NCBI GenBank assembly: GCA_013204395.1
Contig: JABMNZ010000025.1
Location: 9,007-73,006, forward strand
DNA: 64,000 bases
Origin: Parcubacteria group bacterium
GTDB lineage: Bacteria; Patescibacteriota; Patescibacteriia; UBA9934; GWF2-40-263
Direction of reading: 5' to 3'
Part shown: positions 11,823 through 63,031 of the stretch, piece by piece
How positions within the stretch are numbered: the first letter of the stretch is position 1
How the letters are laid out: the number at the start of each line of letters is the position of its first letter
Position numbers and translations under genes: made by a program
Notes under the pieces: model-generated
Told to the model about the DNA's origin: nothing
What the model saw: only the letters and a program-made list of their open reading frames with translations
Databases searched by the model: none

Positions 11823-12839
11823 ATGTCTCAAGAACTAAAGTTTACAAACAAAAATATCCTTGTGACCGGCGGTGCTGGTTTCATTGGCTCGCATTTATGT
11901 GAGCAATTGCTTCGCGATGATCATAGGGTGGTTTGCATAGATAACCTTTCAACGGGCACAGCAAGTAACATTAACGCACTTTTACAGAATCAGAACTTCA
12001 GATTTATTCGTTTGGATATCAACGAGCCATTTGATTTGGAGAGTCACGCAGAGCTCGCTACTTTCAAGTTACCTTTTCAAGGAATCCAAGAAATTTATCA
12101 TTTAGCTTGTCCAACATCGATTAAAAACTTTGACCAGTTTAAAGTTCAAACACTACTTTCAAATTCCTTGGGGAATTATCACGTGCTTGAAATTGCGAAG
12201 AAGTACCGTGCGCGCGTCATGCTGGCTTCTAGTTCCGTAGTGTACGGACAAAGAGCGGAAGGAAGTGGCATGGTTGAGGAGTCTGAAATGGGTTTGGTAA
12301 ATCAACTTTCTCAGAGAGCTTGTTATGACGAGGGTAAGAGATTCTCGGAAACCATGTTTGAGACTTATCGTCAGGTGCACGGTTTGGATATTCGTATAGC
12401 AAGAATTTTTCGCACGTATGGACCGCGCATGCCACTGTTTGATGGACAGCTCATTCCCGATTTTATCTTGAATGCCCTAGATGGAAATGACCTTGTCATG
12501 TACGGAGGAAAAGATTTCAGCACATCTCTCATGTTCATTTCAGATTTGATTGACGGCCTTGCTCGTATCATGGACGCCCCGGAATACACGGGTCCCGTGA
12601 ACATTGGAAGTGATGTTGATTTGAATCTTGTGGATGTGGCGCAGCAAATTATTGAGATGACCAGCTCATCTTCTAAAATCGTTGATGGAGATAATTTTGC
12701 CTTTCTTTCAGAGTTGGCTTTGCCAAGAATTACAGCGATTAAGGACCTTGGCTGGTTCCCCCTTGTGCGTTTGCCAGACGGTCTACGTCGCACCATTGAA
12801 TACATGAAGGCAAATAAGTTGCTTCTGACAAATGTATGA
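11823..12839 (+). CDS. NAD-dependent sugar-nucleotide dehydratase/decarboxylase, UDP-glucuronate decarboxylase (UXS/ArnA-DH)-like
   Basis: ILVTGGAGFIGSHLCEQLL Rossmann motif, IYHLACPTS and YDEGKRFSETM (YxxxK) signatures resembling the UXS family. Confidence 0.65.
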   Translation: MSQELKFTNKNILVTGGAGFIGSHLCEQLLRDDHRVVCIDNLSTGTASNINALLQNQNFRFIRLDINEPFDLESHAELATFKLPFQGIQEIYHLACPTSIKNFDQFKVQTLLSNSLGNYHVLEIAKKYRARVMLASSSVVYGQRAEGSGMVEESEMGLVNQLSQRACYDEGKRFSETMFETYRQVHGLDIRIARIFRTYGPRMPLFDGQLIPDFILNALDGNDLVMYGGKDFSTSLMFISDLIDGLARIMDAPEYTGPVNIGSDVDLNLVDVAQQIIEMTSSSSKIVDGDNFAFLSELALPRITAIKDLGWFPLVRLPDGLRRTIEYMKANKLLLTNV

Positions 12840-37528: not shown

Positions 37529-37812
37529 AACGCGTTTTTATTGTTTATTAGGAGTGTGAATCATGGTTTTTTTTGATCTTGATGTATAAAGTGGATCTTA
37601 AATACGGTACTGAGTTGAGTCAAAAATTGGGTGCTGAGTTGGTTGTAGTTTCGGGCAAGAAGCACTTCTCTGGTCCTGTTGATAATGAAGAGAGTTGTGT
37701 GGAGCTTCCTCAGGCTCTAGATGCCGTAGTGGATATCTCAAGGGCTTGATATTCCCAAAAAATTAACATCGTGTTAACCTAATCCGCGTAAACATTAAGT
37801 TTTTCACACCTT

Positions 37813-38094
37813 ATGGCCAAACTTACCAAGAGCCAGTTCATGGTTGCGTTCGGTGAGCAGCTAGGACTCTCTAAGAAAGACGCTACAGAGAAGTGGGAGG
37901 CGTTTGTAGAACTCGCTTTGCGCGAGGTAGTTACAAACGGCGAATTCCCACTCCCAGGACTCGGCAAGCTCGTTAAGAAAGAACGTGCAGCCCGAATGGG
38001 TCGCAACCCAATGACAGGGGAGTCAATCTCGATTCCTGCAAAGACCGTTGTAAAGTTCCGTGTAGCAAAGTCCGCAAAGGACGCGTTGCTTTAA
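37813..38094 (+). CDS. hup: DNA-binding protein HU
   Basis: MAKLTKSQFMVAFGEQLGLSKKDATE...GKLVKKERAARMGRNPMTGESISIPAKTVVKFRVAK; classic HU/IHF family. Confidence 0.9.
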   Translation: MAKLTKSQFMVAFGEQLGLSKKDATEKWEAFVELALREVVTNGEFPLPGLGKLVKKERAARMGRNPMTGESISIPAKTVVKFRVAKSAKDALL

Positions 38095-38108
38095 AAGGTT
38101 CAGTACAA

Positions 38109-38137
38109 AAAGCCGTCCCTCACGGGGCGGTTTTTTG
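38109..38137 (+). terminator. rho-independent terminator of hup
   Basis: AAAGCCGTCCCTCACGGGGCGGTTTTTTG. Confidence 0.7.
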
Positions 38138-38164
38138 TTTTAAGTTTTTTAATGATTGAAGCAT

Positions 38165-38344
38165 TGGTATAAGAATGGAGGATACACCTGTCGAAGTGGA
38201 GGGTGTGAGACAGGTTGTCTCAGCCGTCATCATGGAACTCAGTTTCATCATGAGACACTTATAGTGCCCATCAAACCTGGTTTGATTCACGTAAGGTTAC
38301 TTGCTCCGATACGACATCGGAGTTTTTTGTTATGATAGCCGCGC
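38165..38344 (+). promoter_or_regulatory. structured ~165-nt leader ending in an intrinsic terminator 17 nt before the hflX ATG (candidate attenuator or riboregulator)
   Basis: Extended -10-like TGGTATAAG at about 38165. Three additional stem-loops: ACCTGTC...GACAGGT, TGTCTCA...TGAGACA and ATCAAAC-CTG-GTTTGAT. Terminator CTCCGAT-ACGAC-ATCGGAG followed by TTTTTT (38304-38328). A possible 30-codon uORF (MEDTPVEVEGVRQVVSAVIMELSFIMRHL) is also present. Confidence 0.4.
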
Positions 38345-39436
38345 ATGGAAAAAGAAAAAGCAATACTAGTGGATTTGATACATCCTCGCATGGATAGGCG
38401 CCATGCAATGGATCGAATGCAGGAATTAGAAGAATTGGTTAATACCTATGGGGGTATTGTCGTTGTGAAGCAATGGCAGAAAAGAAGTGCCCCTCATCCA
38501 AAGACGTACATTGGCACAGGAAAGGTTGAGGAGTTGGGTAATGAGGGTAAAGAGCATGGGGTGAGTATACTCATTATTAATGATCAGCTAAGGCCACGTC
38601 AGGTTTACGATGTTGGTGAGATGCTCAGTCCGTTTGGGATTCAGGTATGGGATAGGATTGATTTGATCTTGAAGATCTTTGCCAAGCACGCAAAAACAGC
38701 AGAAGCCAAGCTTGAGATAGAATTGGCTAGTGTGAGGCACATGGGTCCACGGATCTTTGGTATGGGAATGGAACTCTCTCGACAGGGAGGGGGCACAGGG
38801 ACTCGTGGAATCGGAGAGACAAACAGTGAGAGAATGAAAAGACACCTGAAAGAGAAAGAACGTCGTATTAAATCGAAGTTGGAAAAGTTTAAAAATGGGA
38901 GGAGCCTGGCACGCCAAGGACGTCGACGCAGAGGCCTCAAAACGGTCTCTATCGTTGGATACACCAATGCTGGGAAGACAACACTCCTTAATGCGCTCAC
39001 AGGGCGTAAGGAGTACGTCGCCAATGAGCTTTTTGCGACCTTAGATACCCGTGTGGGGCAGCTGTATTTGCCAGAGAGTCATTCGACCGCGCTTTTGTCT
39101 GATACTATTGGTTTTATTAAGGACCTGCCACCCGAACTTTTGAACGCTTTTTCCTCGACATTGTCTGAGGCTGTTGAAGCAGATCTTTTGCTGCAAGTGA
39201 TTGACGTTAGTGATAAGGACTATAAGCAGCACATAGAAGTTGTGGATGATATTTTGGAAAGGCTGGGCCTAACGGAGACGAAGCGACTGTTGGTTTTCAG
39301 TAAAATTGACGGGATAAGTAAAAAAACCAAACTAGAAATTCAGGAGCAATTTAAAGAAACTCAGCATGTATTTGTCTCAGCACTAAAACGCACGGGCCTG
39401 GACACATTAACCAGCGCAATAGAAAACAGCCTCTAG
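38345..39436 (+). CDS. hflX: GTPase HflX
   Basis: G1 GYTNAGKTTLLNALTG, DTIGF, and the HflX N-terminal domain. Confidence 0.85.
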   Translation: MEKEKAILVDLIHPRMDRRHAMDRMQELEELVNTYGGIVVVKQWQKRSAPHPKTYIGTGKVEELGNEGKEHGVSILIINDQLRPRQVYDVGEMLSPFGIQVWDRIDLILKIFAKHAKTAEAKLEIELASVRHMGPRIFGMGMELSRQGGGTGTRGIGETNSERMKRHLKEKERRIKSKLEKFKNGRSLARQGRRRRGLKTVSIVGYTNAGKTTLLNALTGRKEYVANELFATLDTRVGQLYLPESHSTALLSDTIGFIKDLPPELLNAFSSTLSEAVEADLLLQVIDVSDKDYKQHIEVVDDILERLGLTETKRLLVFSKIDGISKKTKLEIQEQFKETQHVFVSALKRTGLDTLTSAIENSL

Positions 39437-56723: not shown

Positions 56724-57233
56724 ATGCCGACGATTCACACACATCCCTCATCTGTCCCGGATCACGTCTGGGACATCATCTCTGTGGCCACCACAGCAGA
56801 GCCAAAGATCGATTCCACCCGCAACACCCCTGAGAACCTCAAGGGTCTCTACCAGCGCCACCTTGCTGTGGTGCTCATGGCAGAAGGGGAGCCGGTCGGA
56901 TTCATCGCGGCCTGGCCGGTGGAAGATGGTTTCGCGGAGATCGGCTCCATCTGGATTCGCAGTGATCATCGTGGCAGGGGACTCAGTCACAAGCTATACG
57001 ATGCCGTGGCAGGTCTCAGAGGAATCAAAGAACTGGTGGCCTTCGGGGTCACAACCAACCCTATTTCCGTTCACGTCGGAAAGCGCGTAGGGCTGACGAT
57101 CGTCGATGACTGGAGCCGCCCGGTTCCCATGCATCTGACCTGCGGGCCTTGCGAGCTCATCGCACTCGCTGATCAGGCTACGTGTCCAAAACGAGGGACA
57201 TCATGTTGGCTTAGGGTCATGAAGCCTAAGTAA
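56724..57233 (+). CDS. GNAT family N-acetyltransferase
   Basis: AGGAGA SD then ATG 56724. IWIRSDHRGRGLSHKLYDAV (R/QxxGxG/A acetyl-CoA motif). GC-rich. The track ORF begins at 56664. Confidence 0.65.
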   Translation: MPTIHTHPSSVPDHVWDIISVATTAEPKIDSTRNTPENLKGLYQRHLAVVLMAEGEPVGFIAAWPVEDGFAEIGSIWIRSDHRGRGLSHKLYDAVAGLRGIKELVAFGVTTNPISVHVGKRVGLTIVDDWSRPVPMHLTCGPCELIALADQATCPKRGTSCWLRVMKPK

Positions 57234-57245
57234 CGCCCCGCACCA

Positions 57246-57280
57246 CCTGCCAGGACATACGGTCACGGCAGGTTTTTCTT
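57246..57280 (+). terminator. terminator after GNAT gene
   Basis: CCTGCC-(15 nt)-GGCAGG followed by TTTTTCTT. Confidence 0.55.
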
Positions 57281-57284
57281 ATCT

Positions 57285-57306
57285 GTCGGAAGCTAAGCTT
57301 CCGGCC
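57285..57306. repeat. palindrome element GTCGGAAGCTAAGCTTCCGGCC (copy 3 of 3)
   Basis: Identical 22-mer to 19198-19219, again directly after a terminator. Confidence 0.8.
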
Positions 57307-57395
57307 CGTGGGGGTTTTCTTAGCCTTTCTCGTTCCAGTGCAGGTTGTTTATGTAGGTATTTAAAAACCCCGATGTCGTATCGGGGGGGGGTGGA

Positions 57396-58220
57396 TCAGA
57401 GTTCCGGGTAGCGGTCCTCGATCCGGCGCACTAGTCGTTCGAACTCGGGCAGTCGGTGGTTGTCTGGTCTCCAGGCGATGGAGTCCATCAGGTTGATCTC
57501 CTCTACGATCCTTGCGCCATCTTGCGGAACGCCATCGACGAAGTCGCGACCCATGAGCCATACCGTGTCTGCGATGCGCAGAGCAGACCGGATGTCATGG
57601 GAGATCACAACGATGGTTCGGTGCTCGTCCATGTTGGTCGTTTCGACGAGAAGGTCACACACAGCCGTCTTAGCCAGGGTGTCGAGCCCGGAGAACGGTT
57701 CGTCCATCATGATCAGCTTGTCACCGTTGATGACCTGCTGAGCGATCGCCAGTCTTTGACGTTGGCCACCAGAGAGCTGAATGGGGTACTTGTCGATCTC
57801 TCGGGCGATTCCGAACCGCTCGAGGAGCTCCATGATTCGACTCTTGTAGTCGGTGGCAGAGATCTCGGGATTGTTCCGTGCCGATACCAACATGTTGCCC
57901 ATCACCGTGCGGTGAACGAGCAGCATGTAGTTCTGGTACACCACCCCCACTGATCCTGCGACCACTGGGACAAGCGGTGAGCCAGCCCTCACGATGCCCT
58001 CATTGGGCCTTTCCAGTCCGGCAAGGGCCCTGAACAACGTGGTCTTTCCACAACCCGATGGGCCGAGAATTGCCACGATCTGTCCTTGGGTCATGCCAGG
58101 TCGGATCACGTCATGAACTTGTACGGACAAACCCTTGAGGATGGTTCTGTCTCCGAAGGACTTGGTCACACCAACGGCTTCCAACAGCAGGTCGCCCCTT
58201 GAGTGTTCGTAGTCTCCCAT
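57396..58220 (-). CDS. ABC transporter ATP-binding protein (NitT/TauT nitrate/sulfonate/bicarbonate family)
   Basis: Walker A GPSGCGKTT, signature LSGGQRQR, Walker B LIMMDEPFS. GC-rich. Confidence 0.8.
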   Translation of the reverse strand: MGDYEHSRGDLLLEAVGVTKSFGDRTILKGLSVQVHDVIRPGMTQGQIVAILGPSGCGKTTLFRALAGLERPNEGIVRAGSPLVPVVAGSVGVVYQNYMLLVHRTVMGNMLVSARNNPEISATDYKSRIMELLERFGIAREIDKYPIQLSGGQRQRLAIAQQVINGDKLIMMDEPFSGLDTLAKTAVCDLLVETTNMDEHRTIVVISHDIRSALRIADTVWLMGRDFVDGVPQDGARIVEEINLMDSIAWRPDNHRLPEFERLVRRIEDRYPEL

Positions 58221-58221
58221 C

Positions 58222-58998
58222 TCAGTGTCCTCCTAGTGCGGTGTGCGGAGCGCAGACGCGCTTGGCCAGGCCCAACAGGTAGTCGATGCCGATGCCCATG
58301 ACAAGCACAAGCAGCATGATGGCCGTCTGGACGCCAGGGTCGGTGTACTTCTTGGCGTCGTACATGATGACTCCCAGGCCTCCTGAGCGTGAGATGACCT
58401 CCACACCAGCGAGCATGGCAAAGCCGATGGCGTTGTTCTGCCGCATGGCCTCCAGCGCATCTGCGAAGGTGCCAAAGACGACAATCTCTTTGACGATCTC
58501 CCACTCGCTCATCCTGAGCGTGCGGGCGTAGTCATATTTGCTCTGGGGAATCGCCATGACCACGGCAACCATGGAGGTCGTGAAGAAGACCGTGATGGCG
58601 AAGGTGAGCAGGGAGAGCTTTACACCGTCTCCGCTCACGAACATCTGCCTGGCGATGAACGAAAGTCCAGCGATCGACAGAAAGCGCATCAGGGTGACCC
58701 CCCTGACCAATGGCTGAACAAAGCCGAGGCTCCGTGCGTAGCTCAGGAGCAGGGAGATCACCGTTGCCAGGCCTAGGGCCATGGTGGTCAGCTTCAAGCT
58801 TTCCATGATGTCCAGGTAGAAGCTCTGTTTGCCCATAAGCCCCATGAGGGCGGAGAGCGTGTCAGAGACACCCGGAACGGTTGGGGAGCGCCACAGCTCC
58901 CACGTCAGGATGAAGACGGCGATCCAGATGATGGACCACAGCCAGAAACCAGCGGGAGACAAGGGTTGGTTTGGTGTAAACCATGCCTTGGGGTTCAT
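58222..58998 (-). CDS. ABC transporter permease (binding-protein-dependent inner membrane component)
   Basis: 258 aa, 6 TM. Adjacent to and 1 bp from the ATPase gene. Confidence 0.7.
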   Translation of the reverse strand: MNPKAWFTPNQPLSPAGFWLWSIIWIAVFILTWELWRSPTVPGVSDTLSALMGLMGKQSFYLDIMESLKLTTMALGLATVISLLLSYARSLGFVQPLVRGVTLMRFLSIAGLSFIARQMFVSGDGVKLSLLTFAITVFFTTSMVAVVMAIPQSKYDYARTLRMSEWEIVKEIVVFGTFADALEAMRQNNAIGFAMLAGVEVISRSGGLGVIMYDAKKYTDPGVQTAIMLLVLVMGIGIDYLLGLAKRVCAPHTALGGH

Positions 58999-59146
58999 TG
59001 CGCGCCCTCCTTAGACTGACTACATTTTGTCGTCAGCTTGAAATCATTGACTTGAGCAGCCGGGAAATACCAGCCGCTTAAGAAAATGCCCGACATCCAC
59101 ATCTGCAAGAGATGCTTAGTCGGGCAGCGTTGTCGTGCTCTACGTC

Positions 59147-59803
59147 CTAGAGCGTGATCACCCTCACTTCCACGCGACGGTTGGTCGCGCGACCCTGGGG
59201 AGTCCCGTTGGACTCCAGGGGGTTGTCCTCCCCGTGGGGGTGGACCGTGATCCGGTCCTTGGGGAAGGTCGCCGGGGCGATCTCCTGCAGGTAGACCTTG
59301 ACCGCGAAGGCGCGATCTTCGGACAGGACCAAGTTGGTCTCAGCTTCTCCCTGGCTGTCGGTGTAGCCGTGGATCTCTACCCGTGTGCTCTCGGCCATGA
59401 CCAGCAGGGTTGCCAGCTCGTCCAGGTCGCCGGCGGCGCTGGTGTTGAACTGTGCCGAACCGCTCTTGAAGCTGATCTGCCAGCTCCGCGATCCGATCAC
59501 CTGACCGGGGGCGCTGGAGGCCTTGGCGAAGTCCGGAGCGGCGATGCCACCACCCTCGACGCCTTCCAACTTGGAGGCGGCCAGGAGGTACTCACCGTTG
59601 AACACGTCGTCGAACGCGGGATAGGACGAGATGTCCTCGGGCCAGAGATCGACGGCGAGGTCGCCGTAGTACTCGTAGGAGCGCTTGAAGGGGTTGCCCG
59701 CCGATGGGTCAACTCCGTAGAACTGGAGTGCCTCGTCCATGGTGAAGGCCTGGCTTCCGCCGAGTCTCACGCGAACGGTGCGGGTCTTGTCCCACTCCTC
59801 CAT
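59147..59803 (-). CDS. OmpA/MotB-like C-terminal domain protein, in-frame continuation of upstream ORF across a single TAA
   Basis: VEIHGYTDSQGEAETNLVLSEDRAFAVKVYL ... NRRVEVRV OmpA-like signature. The ATG is 3 nt after the TAA of 59807..60964, in the same frame. Confidence 0.55.
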   Translation of the reverse strand: MEEWDKTRTVRVRLGGSQAFTMDEALQFYGVDPSAGNPFKRSYEYYGDLAVDLWPEDISSYPAFDDVFNGEYLLAASKLEGVEGGGIAAPDFAKASSAPGQVIGSRSWQISFKSGSAQFNTSAAGDLDELATLLVMAESTRVEIHGYTDSQGEAETNLVLSEDRAFAVKVYLQEIAPATFPKDRITVHPHGEDNPLESNGTPQGRATNRRVEVRVITL

Positions 59804-59806
59804 GCC

Positions 59807-60964
59807 TTAGTAGTAGGCGGCCCAGTCCTTCGCGTCCATGACGGCCGTCTGGTAGATGGCGAAGGACGCTTCGCCGCTGTGGGTGAGGGCTTCGCGGCTG
59901 GAGCGGACCTCGAGGTTGCCCTCGAAACCACCTGCCAGCCAGTTCACCACCTCGCCCTTGTGGGCCTGGTTCCACTTGCGGATGCCGAAGATCGCGTTGG
60001 GCATCTGCCCACTGTTCTCTTTGGTGGAGAAGATCTTCGCCAGGCCACCCTTGAGACGGGTGACGTTCACGTCGCCGGGGGTCCATGTGCAGGTGCCTGC
60101 GATGCAAACATTCTGCGTGCGACCGGTGAGCTTGCCACCCTTGACCTCCTTGAGGTCGTCGCACTGGTCCTCGATGTAGGCCTTGTCGCCCTCGTCGAAG
60201 CTGCCGGTGTACAGGAAGTTCAGCGCGTCGGGATCCCAGGTGTTCCCGTTGGGATTCACTGGGATGTTGTTGAGTGCTGCCCAAGTGAGGGCCACGTTGA
60301 TGTCGCCGTCACCCTGCACCCCCGCGAAGCGCTTGCCTCGGCAGAAGTCCGGGTTGTTCACGCACTCGGGTGGACCCATGAAGGTGTCCTCGCCCAGCGA
60401 CCGTCCGAAACCGCCGATGATCTCGGCGCGATACTCCGGTCCCAGCTTGGCGAGCTCACGGTTGAGTCCGTCGACGTACCAGGCCGCCGCATCGCCCATC
60501 ATGGCGGTGTGCGTGTAGCCGGCCGTGCAGTTGTCCGAGTTTGTGCGCTGCATCTGCGTGGCACAGGCGATGAGACCGTCCTTCTGGTCTCCGTACATGT
60601 CCTGGCCTTCGATGCGGAGGTTGACCCCCCACTTCTCCATGATGGAGCCCTGCAAGGTGCGGGGTCCACCGTTGGCGTGGTTCACGCCGGCCATGGAGTT
60701 CCAGGGGATGACGCCCCAGTAGATCTCGGTCGAGGTCATGGCCGCCGGGCTGTTCCCGGGGATGGTCACTCCCTCGCTGCTCGCGCTGACGCGCTGGTTC
60801 TGGAAGCTGTTGTCCAGCTCGACGTTGCCGTCGATGGTCACCGACTCGGTGCTCTCGGGTGCGGCCATGCGGTAGAGGGTGAGTCCACCAGCGAACATTG
60901 CCGCCAGAACAGCCACTACGGCGAACAGTCCACCGACCGCGCCCTTGTTTACGGATGTGCCCAT
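59807..60964 (-). CDS. secreted protein (signal peptide; possible solute-binding-like domain), N-terminal part of a split secreted/OmpA-domain gene
   Basis: Signal anchor GAVGGLFAVVAVLAAMFAGG. 385 aa, Cys-rich. Placed in an operon with ABC permease and ATPase. The TAA at 59807-59809 is followed in-frame by 59147..59803. Confidence 0.5.
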   Translation of the reverse strand: MGTSVNKGAVGGLFAVVAVLAAMFAGGLTLYRMAAPESTESVTIDGNVELDNSFQNQRVSASSEGVTIPGNSPAAMTSTEIYWGVIPWNSMAGVNHANGGPRTLQGSIMEKWGVNLRIEGQDMYGDQKDGLIACATQMQRTNSDNCTAGYTHTAMMGDAAAWYVDGLNRELAKLGPEYRAEIIGGFGRSLGEDTFMGPPECVNNPDFCRGKRFAGVQGDGDINVALTWAALNNIPVNPNGNTWDPDALNFLYTGSFDEGDKAYIEDQCDDLKEVKGGKLTGRTQNVCIAGTCTWTPGDVNVTRLKGGLAKIFSTKENSGQMPNAIFGIRKWNQAHKGEVVNWLAGGFEGNLEVRSSREALTHSGEASFAIYQTAVMDAKDWAAYY

Positions 60965-60994
60965 GTAACTATCTCCTCGAATGCCCAGAACTTG

Positions 60995-62125
60995 CTAGGA
61001 CTTGTTGGTTCTTCTTGCGGCGAGTTCCCTGCGGATTCTCGCCCGGCGATCTTCATCCGATTCCCCGGATGTGGTGGGAGCAGATTCTGGCTCTGCTACG
61101 GAAAGCGCTCTAGCTCTCCTGCCAAGTCTGCTTGTCGCAGACGATGGGTGTTCACTGGGAAGCTCCATGGCTGCCAGTTCACGTGTTGCCCCGCTCCATT
61201 GCCGAAGCACTTGCTGGCTTCCAGCAACGTTTGCGATGTTCACACGAGCCAGAACGTCATGTCCTTCTGCAAGGCGAATCTCGATATCAGCGGCACGCAT
61301 CTCTGCGGCAGCTCGGAGTTCTGCGACGGCTTGTCGGACAGAAAGTTCTTGCTCGGAACGTTCTCCCAGCTCACCAAGGTGGCTGCCTAGTGCATCCTGC
61401 CTCAGGTCCGCGCTGCGGAGCTGTGCTTCCTGCAAGGAAAGCTCTTCTTTGATCCGCATGATGTCCAGCTCCAGCTGGTTGCTCATCGTTTGGAGCGAAT
61501 CTCTGAACTGCTTGATGCCGGCGGTGAGTTGGCCGAATTTTGCGGCTGTTTGTTCTTTGAGGCCAGCCTTCTGAATGAGGACTTCAGCTCGACGTCTGTC
61601 ACCAGAGTCATCCAGATCCAGGGCTTCAGCCTTGAAGGCTTCAGCCTCACGGCTGCTCGAGTCTTCTTCTCGCTGACAGTCAGCGATGAATCGATCGATT
61701 CCAACCTGAGCCAGGAGCATGCGCTGGTGCTGCTTTTCAAGCCGGTCGATGACGTCACGTGTCTTTTCAACCGGATCTTCTTGCTCCGCTTCTTCATGTT
61801 CCCAATCATCTTCGGAGACATCCTCGTCTTCGATCAGGAACGTTCGGTAGGCCTTGGTGAACAAGGCTAGATACGAGGTGTAGGCAAGTCCTGCCAGGCC
61901 ACGCGCAGTCCTGTTCATTGCGGCCAAACCTGCCAGCAAGCCTCCACCCAAGATGGCACCCGCTACGATGAGCGGACCAGCAGGGGTGAAGGCAGCAGCG
62001 GCAAGCAAGGGCAGAAGGAGCCAGGCCAGCATTACGAGCACAGGAGCAAGAAGAACGGCACCAGTCATCTTGGCCGCCTTCAACTCCTTGGGAGTCATCC
62101 GTAGGCGGTCGATGAGGTCGTTCAT
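60995..62125 (-). CDS. membrane-anchored coiled-coil protein
   Basis: Two N-terminal TM helices, then about 250 aa of Glu/Arg/Ala-rich heptad-like sequence. Confidence 0.5.
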   Translation of the reverse strand: MNDLIDRLRMTPKELKAAKMTGAVLLAPVLVMLAWLLLPLLAAAAFTPAGPLIVAGAILGGGLLAGLAAMNRTARGLAGLAYTSYLALFTKAYRTFLIEDEDVSEDDWEHEEAEQEDPVEKTRDVIDRLEKQHQRMLLAQVGIDRFIADCQREEDSSSREAEAFKAEALDLDDSGDRRRAEVLIQKAGLKEQTAAKFGQLTAGIKQFRDSLQTMSNQLELDIMRIKEELSLQEAQLRSADLRQDALGSHLGELGERSEQELSVRQAVAELRAAAEMRAADIEIRLAEGHDVLARVNIANVAGSQQVLRQWSGATRELAAMELPSEHPSSATSRLGRRARALSVAEPESAPTTSGESDEDRRARIRRELAARRTNKS

Positions 62126-62140
62126 TGGTACTTACTCCTC

Positions 62141-62854
62141 TTAGGGGTTGTTGCCCGGGGGCTCCTCGGGGGTGGCATCGGGGTGCTGACCACGGACGAA
62201 GGCATCGGCCGCCATGAGTCCAGCATCGCGCTGTGCGATGTGGGCCATGGAGGCTTCCACCGCTTGTCCGATGGCGGCGCGCCGCGACTGAGCCTCGGCT
62301 TCTTCGATTTGGGCTTCACGGCGCAGCTGAGCGATCTCCATCTCCATCACCTGGGCACGCGCCCGCTTGTCGAGAACACTCGCTTCCAGCTCACCGACCT
62401 GCTCCTCGATGGCGCCGTCACGTCCCGCTTCGACTTCTTGACGGATGTCGGCGCAGGCTTGCCTGGCTTCGGCGATGTCCCAGAGCACATGTCCGGGCGT
62501 GAATCCTTGAGTGGTCTGCATGGCACCGGCCACGATCATGGCACGTTGGCCAGAGTCGGGCAGGCCCGGAGCAAACTGAGCATCGAGTTGACGCCACAGC
62601 GAGAATGCCGGAGCTGCTGCTGCAGCGATCTCGTCGTCGACGAGCCTGATGATCTCTTCGGGATCCATCTGCACGATCTCCGCACCCAAGGGGGCAGGGG
62701 TCGTGACTGGCGGCATGGTCGGCGGGGCCAACTCGGCTTCGAGCTGATTCATGGCCGCGGCCAAGTCTTCTGCTGAGAGCTCGGGGGTGTCGCCACCTCC
62801 TTTGGTCTCAACCAACAGTCCGGTTTTCAAACCGAGGGTCTTGAAAAAGCTCAT
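62141..62854 (-). CDS. coiled-coil protein (PspA-like composition, unassigned)
   Basis: 237 aa, N-terminal amphipathic MSFFKTLGLKTGLL, long acidic/Ala-rich helices. Confidence 0.5.
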   Translation of the reverse strand: MSFFKTLGLKTGLLVETKGGGDTPELSAEDLAAAMNQLEAELAPPTMPPVTTPAPLGAEIVQMDPEEIIRLVDDEIAAAAAPAFSLWRQLDAQFAPGLPDSGQRAMIVAGAMQTTQGFTPGHVLWDIAEARQACADIRQEVEAGRDGAIEEQVGELEASVLDKRARAQVMEMEIAQLRREAQIEEAEAQSRRAAIGQAVEASMAHIAQRDAGLMAADAFVRGQHPDATPEEPPGNNP

Positions 62855-63031
62855 ATCTCCTCCATGGTCCGGTTAGGACCAGTTCAGTGTTGTGATTCAT
62901 GGTTTTGTGAAGGTGTTCAGTTGTGAAGAACGACGGGGATTTTTACGTTAAAATGCTGAAAATGTCAACGGGTATAAAGGTGTGGATGAATCATTCGCTG
63001 TAAGGCCGTAGATTTAGTACCCTTTTATCGT

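Follow-up and report, generated by a model that had tools for sequence, protein, structure and literature searches.

The segment at 38140-38344, directly upstream of hflX, is probably the truncated tail of a gene followed by the terminator of that gene, and not a regulatory leader, while hflX itself probably has its own promoter. The gene in question, for which we use the name orfX, is an ORF found between hup and hflX in some Candidatus Uhrbacteria. The original prediction had read the segment as a structured leader that controls hflX by readthrough or as an independent sRNA. Throughout, the window is the whole stretch of DNA that was analyzed (64,000 nt), and positions are those of the window unless another locus is named. 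A search of a species-level genome collection returned Uhrbacteria MAGs as the best matches of the HflX protein. The interval in question is the 250-nt gap between the end of hup at 38094 and the hflX start codon at 38345, and it is laid out as follows.

Upstream of hup, + strand: a NUDIX gene and a riboflavin-kinase gene
37813-38094, + strand: hup coding sequence, the upstream neighbor (HU-type DNA-binding protein; Pfam Bac_DNA_binding, E = 7.8e-23; protein identical in L162)
38105-38138, + strand: hup intrinsic terminator with A-tract, GC-rich hairpin, and T-tract (terminator scan, 15 pairs; kept in L162 and L001)
38145-38177, + strand: what survives of the orfX promoter region, as far as the deletion junction (BLAST break against L162; pairwise alignment to L162 TTGACA...TCTAATGG upstream of the orfX SD)
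38165-38173, + strand: -10-like TGGTATAAG inside the promoter leftover, with the hexamer TATAAG lacking the final T
38175-38264, + strand: 29-codon ORF, the orfX 3' remnant (last 28 codons plus stop; tblastn, HMM, and alignment)
38186/38209, + strand: stem 1, ACCTGTC/GACAGGT
38206-38222, + strand: fourth pairing, the perfect palindrome TGAGACA-GGT-TGTCTCA (arms at 38206/38216), inside the remnant
38216/38251, + strand: stem 2, TGTCTCA/TGAGACA
38251-38257, + strand: third arm of the palindrome, TGAGACA
38270/38280, + strand: stem 3, ATCAAAC/GTTTGAT, forming the window-specific hairpin ATCAAAC-CTG-GTTTGAT at 38270-38286 in the former orfX 3' UTR
38303-38323 with T-run ending at 38328, + strand: orfX intrinsic terminator, GCTCCGAT-ACGAC-ATCGGAGT, with an 8-bp stem, a 5-nt loop, and six T's (terminator scan)
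38328-38336, + strand: putative extended -10 box TGTTATGAT, hexamer TATGAT at 38331-38336, overlapping the end of the T-run and lying 8 nt before the hflX ATG
38337-38344, + strand: variable 8-nt stretch from the box to the ATG, with no SD site
38345-39436, + strand: hflX coding sequence (Pfam GTP-bdg_N, GTP-bdg_M, MMR_HSR1)
3' of hflX, convergent: L28 gene

The terminator, the -10-like TGGTATAAG, the ORF, and the three stems were thus all correctly located by the original prediction, as was the closeness of a canonical terminator to the hflX ATG, except that the distance from the end of the T-run to the ATG is 16 nt and not 17. These features are real but ordinary, being a gene remnant, the terminator of that gene, and a leaderless-type promoter. 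Further upstream, between the riboflavin-kinase terminator and hup, we also observed a 58-codon ORF at 37573-37749 on the + strand that has no Pfam match; it is called as a 55-aa gene in an identical Logan contig, and there is no call for it in L162.

A truncated orfX between hup and hflX

The hup-hflX synteny is kept in approximately 26 Uhrbacteria loci, and in most relatives the gap between the two genes is usually 45-150 nt long and has the hup terminator alone inside. In L001, L011, L026, and L029, the gap measures 520-590 nt and contains an ORF of 118-133 codons, which is orfX. The gene is located at 2902-3273 in L162, 2568-2939 in L001, 2522-2920 in L011, 2564-2920 in L026, and 6-407 in L029; in the four loci with upstream sequence, it lies between hup and hflX, while L029 is a short contig where it can be placed upstream of hflX only. 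Exact-protein look-ups with HU and L28 identified a sister genome, represented by L162/L164 (GCA_041294365.1) and L165, whose HU protein is identical to that of the window and whose hup and hflX genes share 95.3% nucleotide identity with it. Each of these loci possesses an intact orfX of 123 codons, with AAGGAG (SD) upstream and the same terminator as in the window downstream.

The orfX family comprises eight clusters of hypothetical proteins, all of them from Uhrbacteria, among 5.8 billion sequences, and it evolves quickly (dN/dS of ~0.3 for L162 vs L001). No Pfam family matched orfX. Its AlphaFold model is confident (pLDDT 91) and shows a generic five-helix bundle, and comparison of the model with the PDB gave no fold match at E < 0.2. 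The orfX proteins are 116-133 aa long, and orfX is a small lineage-specific gene whose product is predicted to be a helical-bundle protein.

When L162 was compared with the window by BLAST, positions 2833-3186 of L162 (354 nt) corresponded to 38145-38177 of the window (33 nt), a net loss of 321 nt. The deleted sequence includes the orfX SD site, the start codon, and the N-terminal ~95 codons. A separate Logan assembly (L161/L163) matches the window at 100% identity over 5.3 kb, and an identical contig is present in SRR28106091, which shows that the deletion is a genuine allele and not an assembly artifact. Far more distantly related Uhrbacteria (L001, L011, L026, and L029) also have orfX at this position, so its presence is ancestral, and the state of the window is a derived deletion. 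We found no relative with the short form beyond assemblies identical to the window, and the contig of L081, whose HflX is 84% identical, begins 36 nt upstream of hflX.

What is left of the coding sequence is recognizable by several independent comparisons. When the whole window was searched with the L001 orfX protein by tblastn, a single match was returned, at 38178-38258 (E = 4e-4). An HMM built from four full-length orfX proteins, with the window sequence left out, matched the window ORF at E = 4.9e-4, and the next best match among 1,616 upstream segments had an E-value of 0.25. The window ORF (MEDTPVEVEGVRQVVSAVIMELSFIMRHL) aligns to the conserved C-terminal motif of orfX with its stop codon in register and shows 72% amino acid identity to the end of L162 orfX (...TENTPVEVEGVRQVASAIIMDLGFIIRHS). 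The ATG of the window ORF lies opposite the codon for Thr94 of orfX, and because that codon is now ATG, the last 28 codons of orfX read as a 29-codon ORF. By tblastn, HMM, alignment, and the comparison with L162, then, the ORF that had been described as a uORF of a leader is a truncated remnant of orfX.

Conservation along the segment follows the same division. Compared to L164, the remnant is identical at 70/87 positions, and the sequence from the stop codon to the terminator (38265-38302) is identical at 23/38 positions (27/38 for L165), which makes the remnant and the 3' spacer, at 80% and 61% identity, the least conserved parts of the locus; the flanking genes stand at 95% identity to L164. 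The block formed by the terminator, the T-run, and the -10 box TGTTATGAT is identical to L164 at 33/34 positions, and the 8 nt that follow, before the ATG, are identical at 3/8, this stretch being 7 nt long in L164. Within the segment, only the terminator and the adjacent TGTTATGAT are conserved, and the 61-80% identity of the remainder, vs 95% in the flanks, is not the pattern of a leader kept in related genomes.

The remnant resembles a pseudogene in being homologous and syntenic to a gene that a close relative has intact, in the loss of its start codon, SD, and N-terminal ~95 codons, and in having diverged faster than its flanks with its terminator preserved. It differs from one in that it retains an ATG-initiated open frame and unusually many perfect short inverted repeats. 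We infer that the remnant is without function. As the -10-like box survives upstream, the remnant may still be transcribed.

The sequence at 38303-38328 is an intrinsic (Rho-independent) terminator, and it is conserved. L162, L164, and L165 have it unchanged, 3' of the intact orfX stop codon, and L001, where it also follows the orfX stop codon, has one pair replaced in a compensatory way (T-A to C-G) besides one G-U change. On its own, the hairpin at 38303-38323 has a folding energy of -10.3 kcal/mol, and its pairs have probabilities of 0.57-0.73 in the ensemble. A second terminator, CCCCGAT-ACGAC-ATCGGGG followed by TTTTT, is located at 57363-57384 on the - strand, downstream of the minus-strand gene 57396-58220. 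It has in common with the orfX terminator (38306-38320) the exact 15-mer CCGATACGACATCGG, which covers the same loop and inner stem, and its outer pair is C-G instead of T-A, a compensatory difference. This common core suggests either a common origin or a preferred terminator module.

A probable promoter and the start codon of hflX

The hflX reading frame is bounded by an in-frame TAG at 38336-38338, and a KAILVDL strand just after the ATG at 38345 is conserved in approximately 160 homologues. Because of the in-frame TAG and of the KAILVDL strand just downstream, we assign 38345 as the hflX start codon. Automatic gene calls begin hflX at 38390, the second ATG (3078 in L161 and 3398 in L162), which gives proteins of 348-349 aa. 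This start is 45 nt too far downstream, since it cuts off the conserved N-terminal KAILVDL strand. In the same annotations, a gene is placed on the 29-codon remnant, and both errors are probably artifacts of SD-based start models applied to a leaderless gene.

It had been argued that the terminator leaves no room for a separate promoter before hflX. However, the extended -10 box TGTTATGAT fits 8 nt before the ATG, is invariant in five loci, and belongs to a motif that is enriched across Uhrbacteria. The box is the same in the window, in L162/L164/L165, and in L001, L081, and L022, whose HflX proteins are 77%, 84%, and 68% identical to that of the window, respectively, even though the hairpin upstream of the box differs. 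We counted upstream motifs in 51 non-redundant Uhrbacteria hflX loci and found TGnTAnnnT 5-8 nt before the hflX ATG in 19/51 loci, compared to a mean of 0.45 and a maximum of 4 in 1,000 shuffles. The shorter TANNNT was present at the same distance in 23/51 loci (shuffle mean 5.3, maximum 12), and the position of the box peaks sharply at a spacing of 6-8 nt before the ATG.

SD-like motifs are scarce by comparison, occurring before hflX in 8/51 loci and not before hflX of the window, and within 17 nt of the start codon in 6/51 long ORFs of the window. Many other first genes of the window also have TGnTAnnnT 6-10 nt before their ATG, such as TGCTATACT, which is followed by 8 nt and the ATG at 11823. 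Candidate leaderless-type starts are those at 11823, 6158, 39770, 43627, 40939, 41493, 48172, and 54743, among others. These observations suggest that leaderless or very short-leader mRNAs may be the norm in this Uhrbacteria genome. In the region at ~57000-63000, the G+C content is 0.52-0.60, vs ~0.45 elsewhere in the window, and the minus-strand genes have clear SD sites (AGGAGG, AAGGAGG, and GGAGGAG), unlike the rest of the window. This block may have been acquired horizontally.

A TANNNT motif approximately 10-12 nt upstream of the start codon is the established signature of leaderless genes in bacteria (Zheng et al. 2011, PMC3160421; GeneMarkS-2, PMC6028130). In the window, TATGAT begins 14 nt before the ATG, 8 nt separate the two, no SD is present, and the arrangement recurs in orthologues and in other first genes. 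It departs from the known bacterial cases in that the TGn extension is nearly universal here, in that the box overlaps the T-run of the preceding terminator, and in that the lineage is Patescibacteria/CPR, with the transcription start site a prediction. Our literature searches gave no specific description of leaderless initiation in CPR/Patescibacteria.

Altogether, hflX is most likely expressed as a leaderless or near-leaderless mRNA from its own promoter, with promoter activity and the transcription start site predicted from the position of the box. We propose that a deletion of ~321 nt took the SD, the start codon, and the first ~95 codons of orfX, while part of its promoter region (38145-38177), its last 28 codons, the 3' UTR, and an intact terminator (38303-38328) were spared. 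On this proposal, hflX would be transcribed from the extended -10 promoter TGTTATGAT at 38328-38336, and, given that the box lies 8 nt before the ATG, its mRNA would start at, or within a few nucleotides of, the ATG and would be leaderless, with no SD. The orfX terminator would insulate hflX from upstream transcription.

Inverted repeats and other possible roles for the segment

Within its 205 nt, the segment holds five perfect stems, each at least 7 bp long, which is the densest such cluster in the 64 kb (top 0.2% of windows of this kind), and none of 1,000 dinucleotide shuffles reached this count; the corrected significance is marginal, as one heptamer recurs in three of these stems and the region was picked for its stems. 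On the other hand, folding of the whole region is ordinary, with an MFE z-score of -0.86 (40/200 shuffles fold at least as well) and values of -0.86 and -1.62 for the two strands. Neither stem 1 nor stem 3 exists in L164, L165, or L001. The palindrome at 38206-38222 reads TGAGGCA-GGT-TGCCTCA in L164 and L165, an A-T to G-C swap that the third arm follows in parallel, and it is not kept in L001. We also considered the palindrome as an operator and rejected it, no second copy being present in the window.

Searches for structured RNA agree with the ordinary folding energy in giving no family. No match to Rfam 15 was found at the gathering score in the whole 64 kb, and at E <= 10 on 37900-38600, there was nothing meaningful in 38140-38344, the weak leader matches being look-alikes of the hup terminator. 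Two weak matches that reach into the segment (38108-38187 on the minus strand and 38123-38190, with E-values of 2.9 and 5.5) are far below gathering and overlap the end of the hup terminator. A tRNA/tmRNA scan found none. In an RNAalifold consensus, which with four sequences has low power, only the terminator was kept (covariation term -0.75 kcal/mol), and the one helix outside the terminator is none of the three stems described at the outset and has negligible covariation.

An independent sRNA is the alternative that survives best, and we consider it unlikely. Here, the remnant would be transcribed from the retained TGGTATAAG region, starting at ~38180 and ending at the terminator, as a stable RNA of ~150 nt that has perhaps acquired a function. 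The -10-like box at 38165-38173 does have a TG extension and, in the pairwise alignment, corresponds to TCTAAT in the upstream region of L162 orfX; a strong terminator lies downstream, the stem density is unusually high, and the palindrome is kept in L164 and L165 by a compensatory change. However, the hexamer TATAAG is without the near-universal final T and was not called by the promoter scan, and the z-score of -0.86 and the empty Rfam result both argue against a structured product. In addition, no part of the locus evolves faster than this segment, whose bases belong to a coding sequence in the nearest relatives. Template switching that "corrects" a quasi-palindrome can mimic covariation, and the single compensatory change in the palindrome could have arisen in this way. 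The earlier suggestion of an independent unit therefore holds insofar as the segment is a unit that ends at a terminator, but its origin is the 3' end of a protein-coding gene and not an sRNA gene.

The stem density and the compensatory change in the palindrome could hint at a retained function at the RNA or DNA level. More specifically, the remnant could now be a newborn sRNA (~150 nt, roughly 38180-38328) with hairpins under selection, or a roadblock or occlusion element that modulates the abutting hflX promoter, but we regard either of these as decidedly unlikely.

A leader that acts as an attenuator or riboswitch would require a transcript from ~38180 that stops at 38328 or reads into hflX, with ribosome stalling on the ORF, a ligand, or temperature as the switch. 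There is a precedent in the rli80-hflXr locus of Listeria monocytogenes, a ribosome-dependent transcription attenuator that controls an hflX homologue (Duval et al. 2018, PMC6310831). In that system, a translated 14-aa ORF with an RLR stalling motif is coupled to antiterminator and anti-antiterminator helices, and hflXr is without its own promoter (PMC6310831). In the window, too, an hflX-family gene is directly preceded by a short ORF and an intrinsic terminator, and the pairings at 38186/38209, 38206/38216, and 38216/38251 are mutually exclusive. Moreover, the 5' arm of the terminator is paired with GGAGG near 38197 in an alternative fold whose energy is equal (-47.2 kcal/mol).

Several points weigh against this reading. 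Unlike the Listeria leader ORF, the ORF of the window is the tail of orfX, which the sister genome of ~95% identity still has in full (123 codons) and where the same terminator simply ends the gene, and the ORF has neither an SD site nor a stalling motif of the RLR type. A single nucleotide separates the only -10-like box from the ATG of the ORF, so a transcript would start inside the ORF. In constrained folding and a duplex test, the complementarity of the terminator arm was no better than in shuffled sequence (54% of shuffles were as good), and these two tests gave no specific partner for the arm. The would-be leader is poorly conserved, with stems 1 and 3 lost in relatives, and it has no Rfam match, while hflX has a conserved -10 box of its own after the terminator, and most relatives are without the segment altogether. 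With the ORF being a remnant, these points make control of hflX by an attenuator, a riboswitch, or a thermometer very unlikely.

Continued translation of the 29-aa ORF as a micro-protein with some of the activity of the orfX C-terminal helix is likewise highly improbable: the frame is open from an ATG to the ancestral stop codon, the conserved motif PxE[VI][DE]xxRQ...L.L is kept, dN/dS vs L162 is ~0.23 and not the neutral value (a weak estimate, from 28 codons and one shared functional branch), and most genes in the genome are without an SD anyway, but the product would be the last helix only of the five-helix bundle in the AlphaFold model, the ATG is without leaderless-type spacing as the -10-like box ends 1 nt before it, the dN vs L162 is ~25 times that of hflX (0.149 vs 0.006), and no short form exists among the family members retrieved.

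Other hup-hflX arrangements and gene starts in Uhrbacteria

A truncated orfX tail followed by a separate hflX promoter, the reading that we favor for the window, is one of several arrangements seen between hup and hflX. In 8/51 non-redundant loci (L002, L004, L005, L010, L016, L025, L090, and L096), only 4-8 nt lie between the stem of the hup terminator and the hflX ATG, and they hold no -10 box; this terminator-abutting class and the -10-box class to which the window belongs are mutually exclusive. In several of these eight loci, the hairpin is closely preceded by a motif resembling TACAAT or TAAGAT. In all eight, hflX may depend on readthrough of the terminator or on a promoter upstream of the hairpin.

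Several other Uhrbacteria have a conserved long hairpin between the hup stop and the hflX ATG, which is absent from the window. It is found in L003 (~2880-2950), L023 (~2620-2690), L017/L094, L012 (~2915-2995), L092 (1218 and 1305), L006 (partial), L018, and L093. Its core reads CATG(C/T)CTCCGGGCCA-NN-GGACT...TTGTTCC, and its inner stem covaries (CAAAGG/CCTTTG, CAACGG/CCGTTG, and CAAGGG/CCCTTG), while the outer stem of 15-17 bp differs in sequence between loci with pairing kept. The ~38-nt core is inverted in L018 and L093 relative to L012 and L092, and L092 possesses two tandem copies of the hairpin, with the hflX 5' end repeated after each of them. The long hairpin has no Rfam family match; possible identities are an unnamed structured RNA, an elaborate terminator, and a small element prone to inversion or recombination.

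The main value of our result is a correction, and it also touches the annotation of the locus, both in the start of hflX and in the gene call on the remnant. In a Patescibacteria genome, attenuation does not follow from the contact of a terminator with a start codon, as such genomes appear to fit an extended -10 box into the ~16 nt after the terminator, with the mRNA starting at the ATG. If the leaderless, SD-poor layout is general in Uhrbacteria, it would bear on gene-start prediction for CPR genomes.
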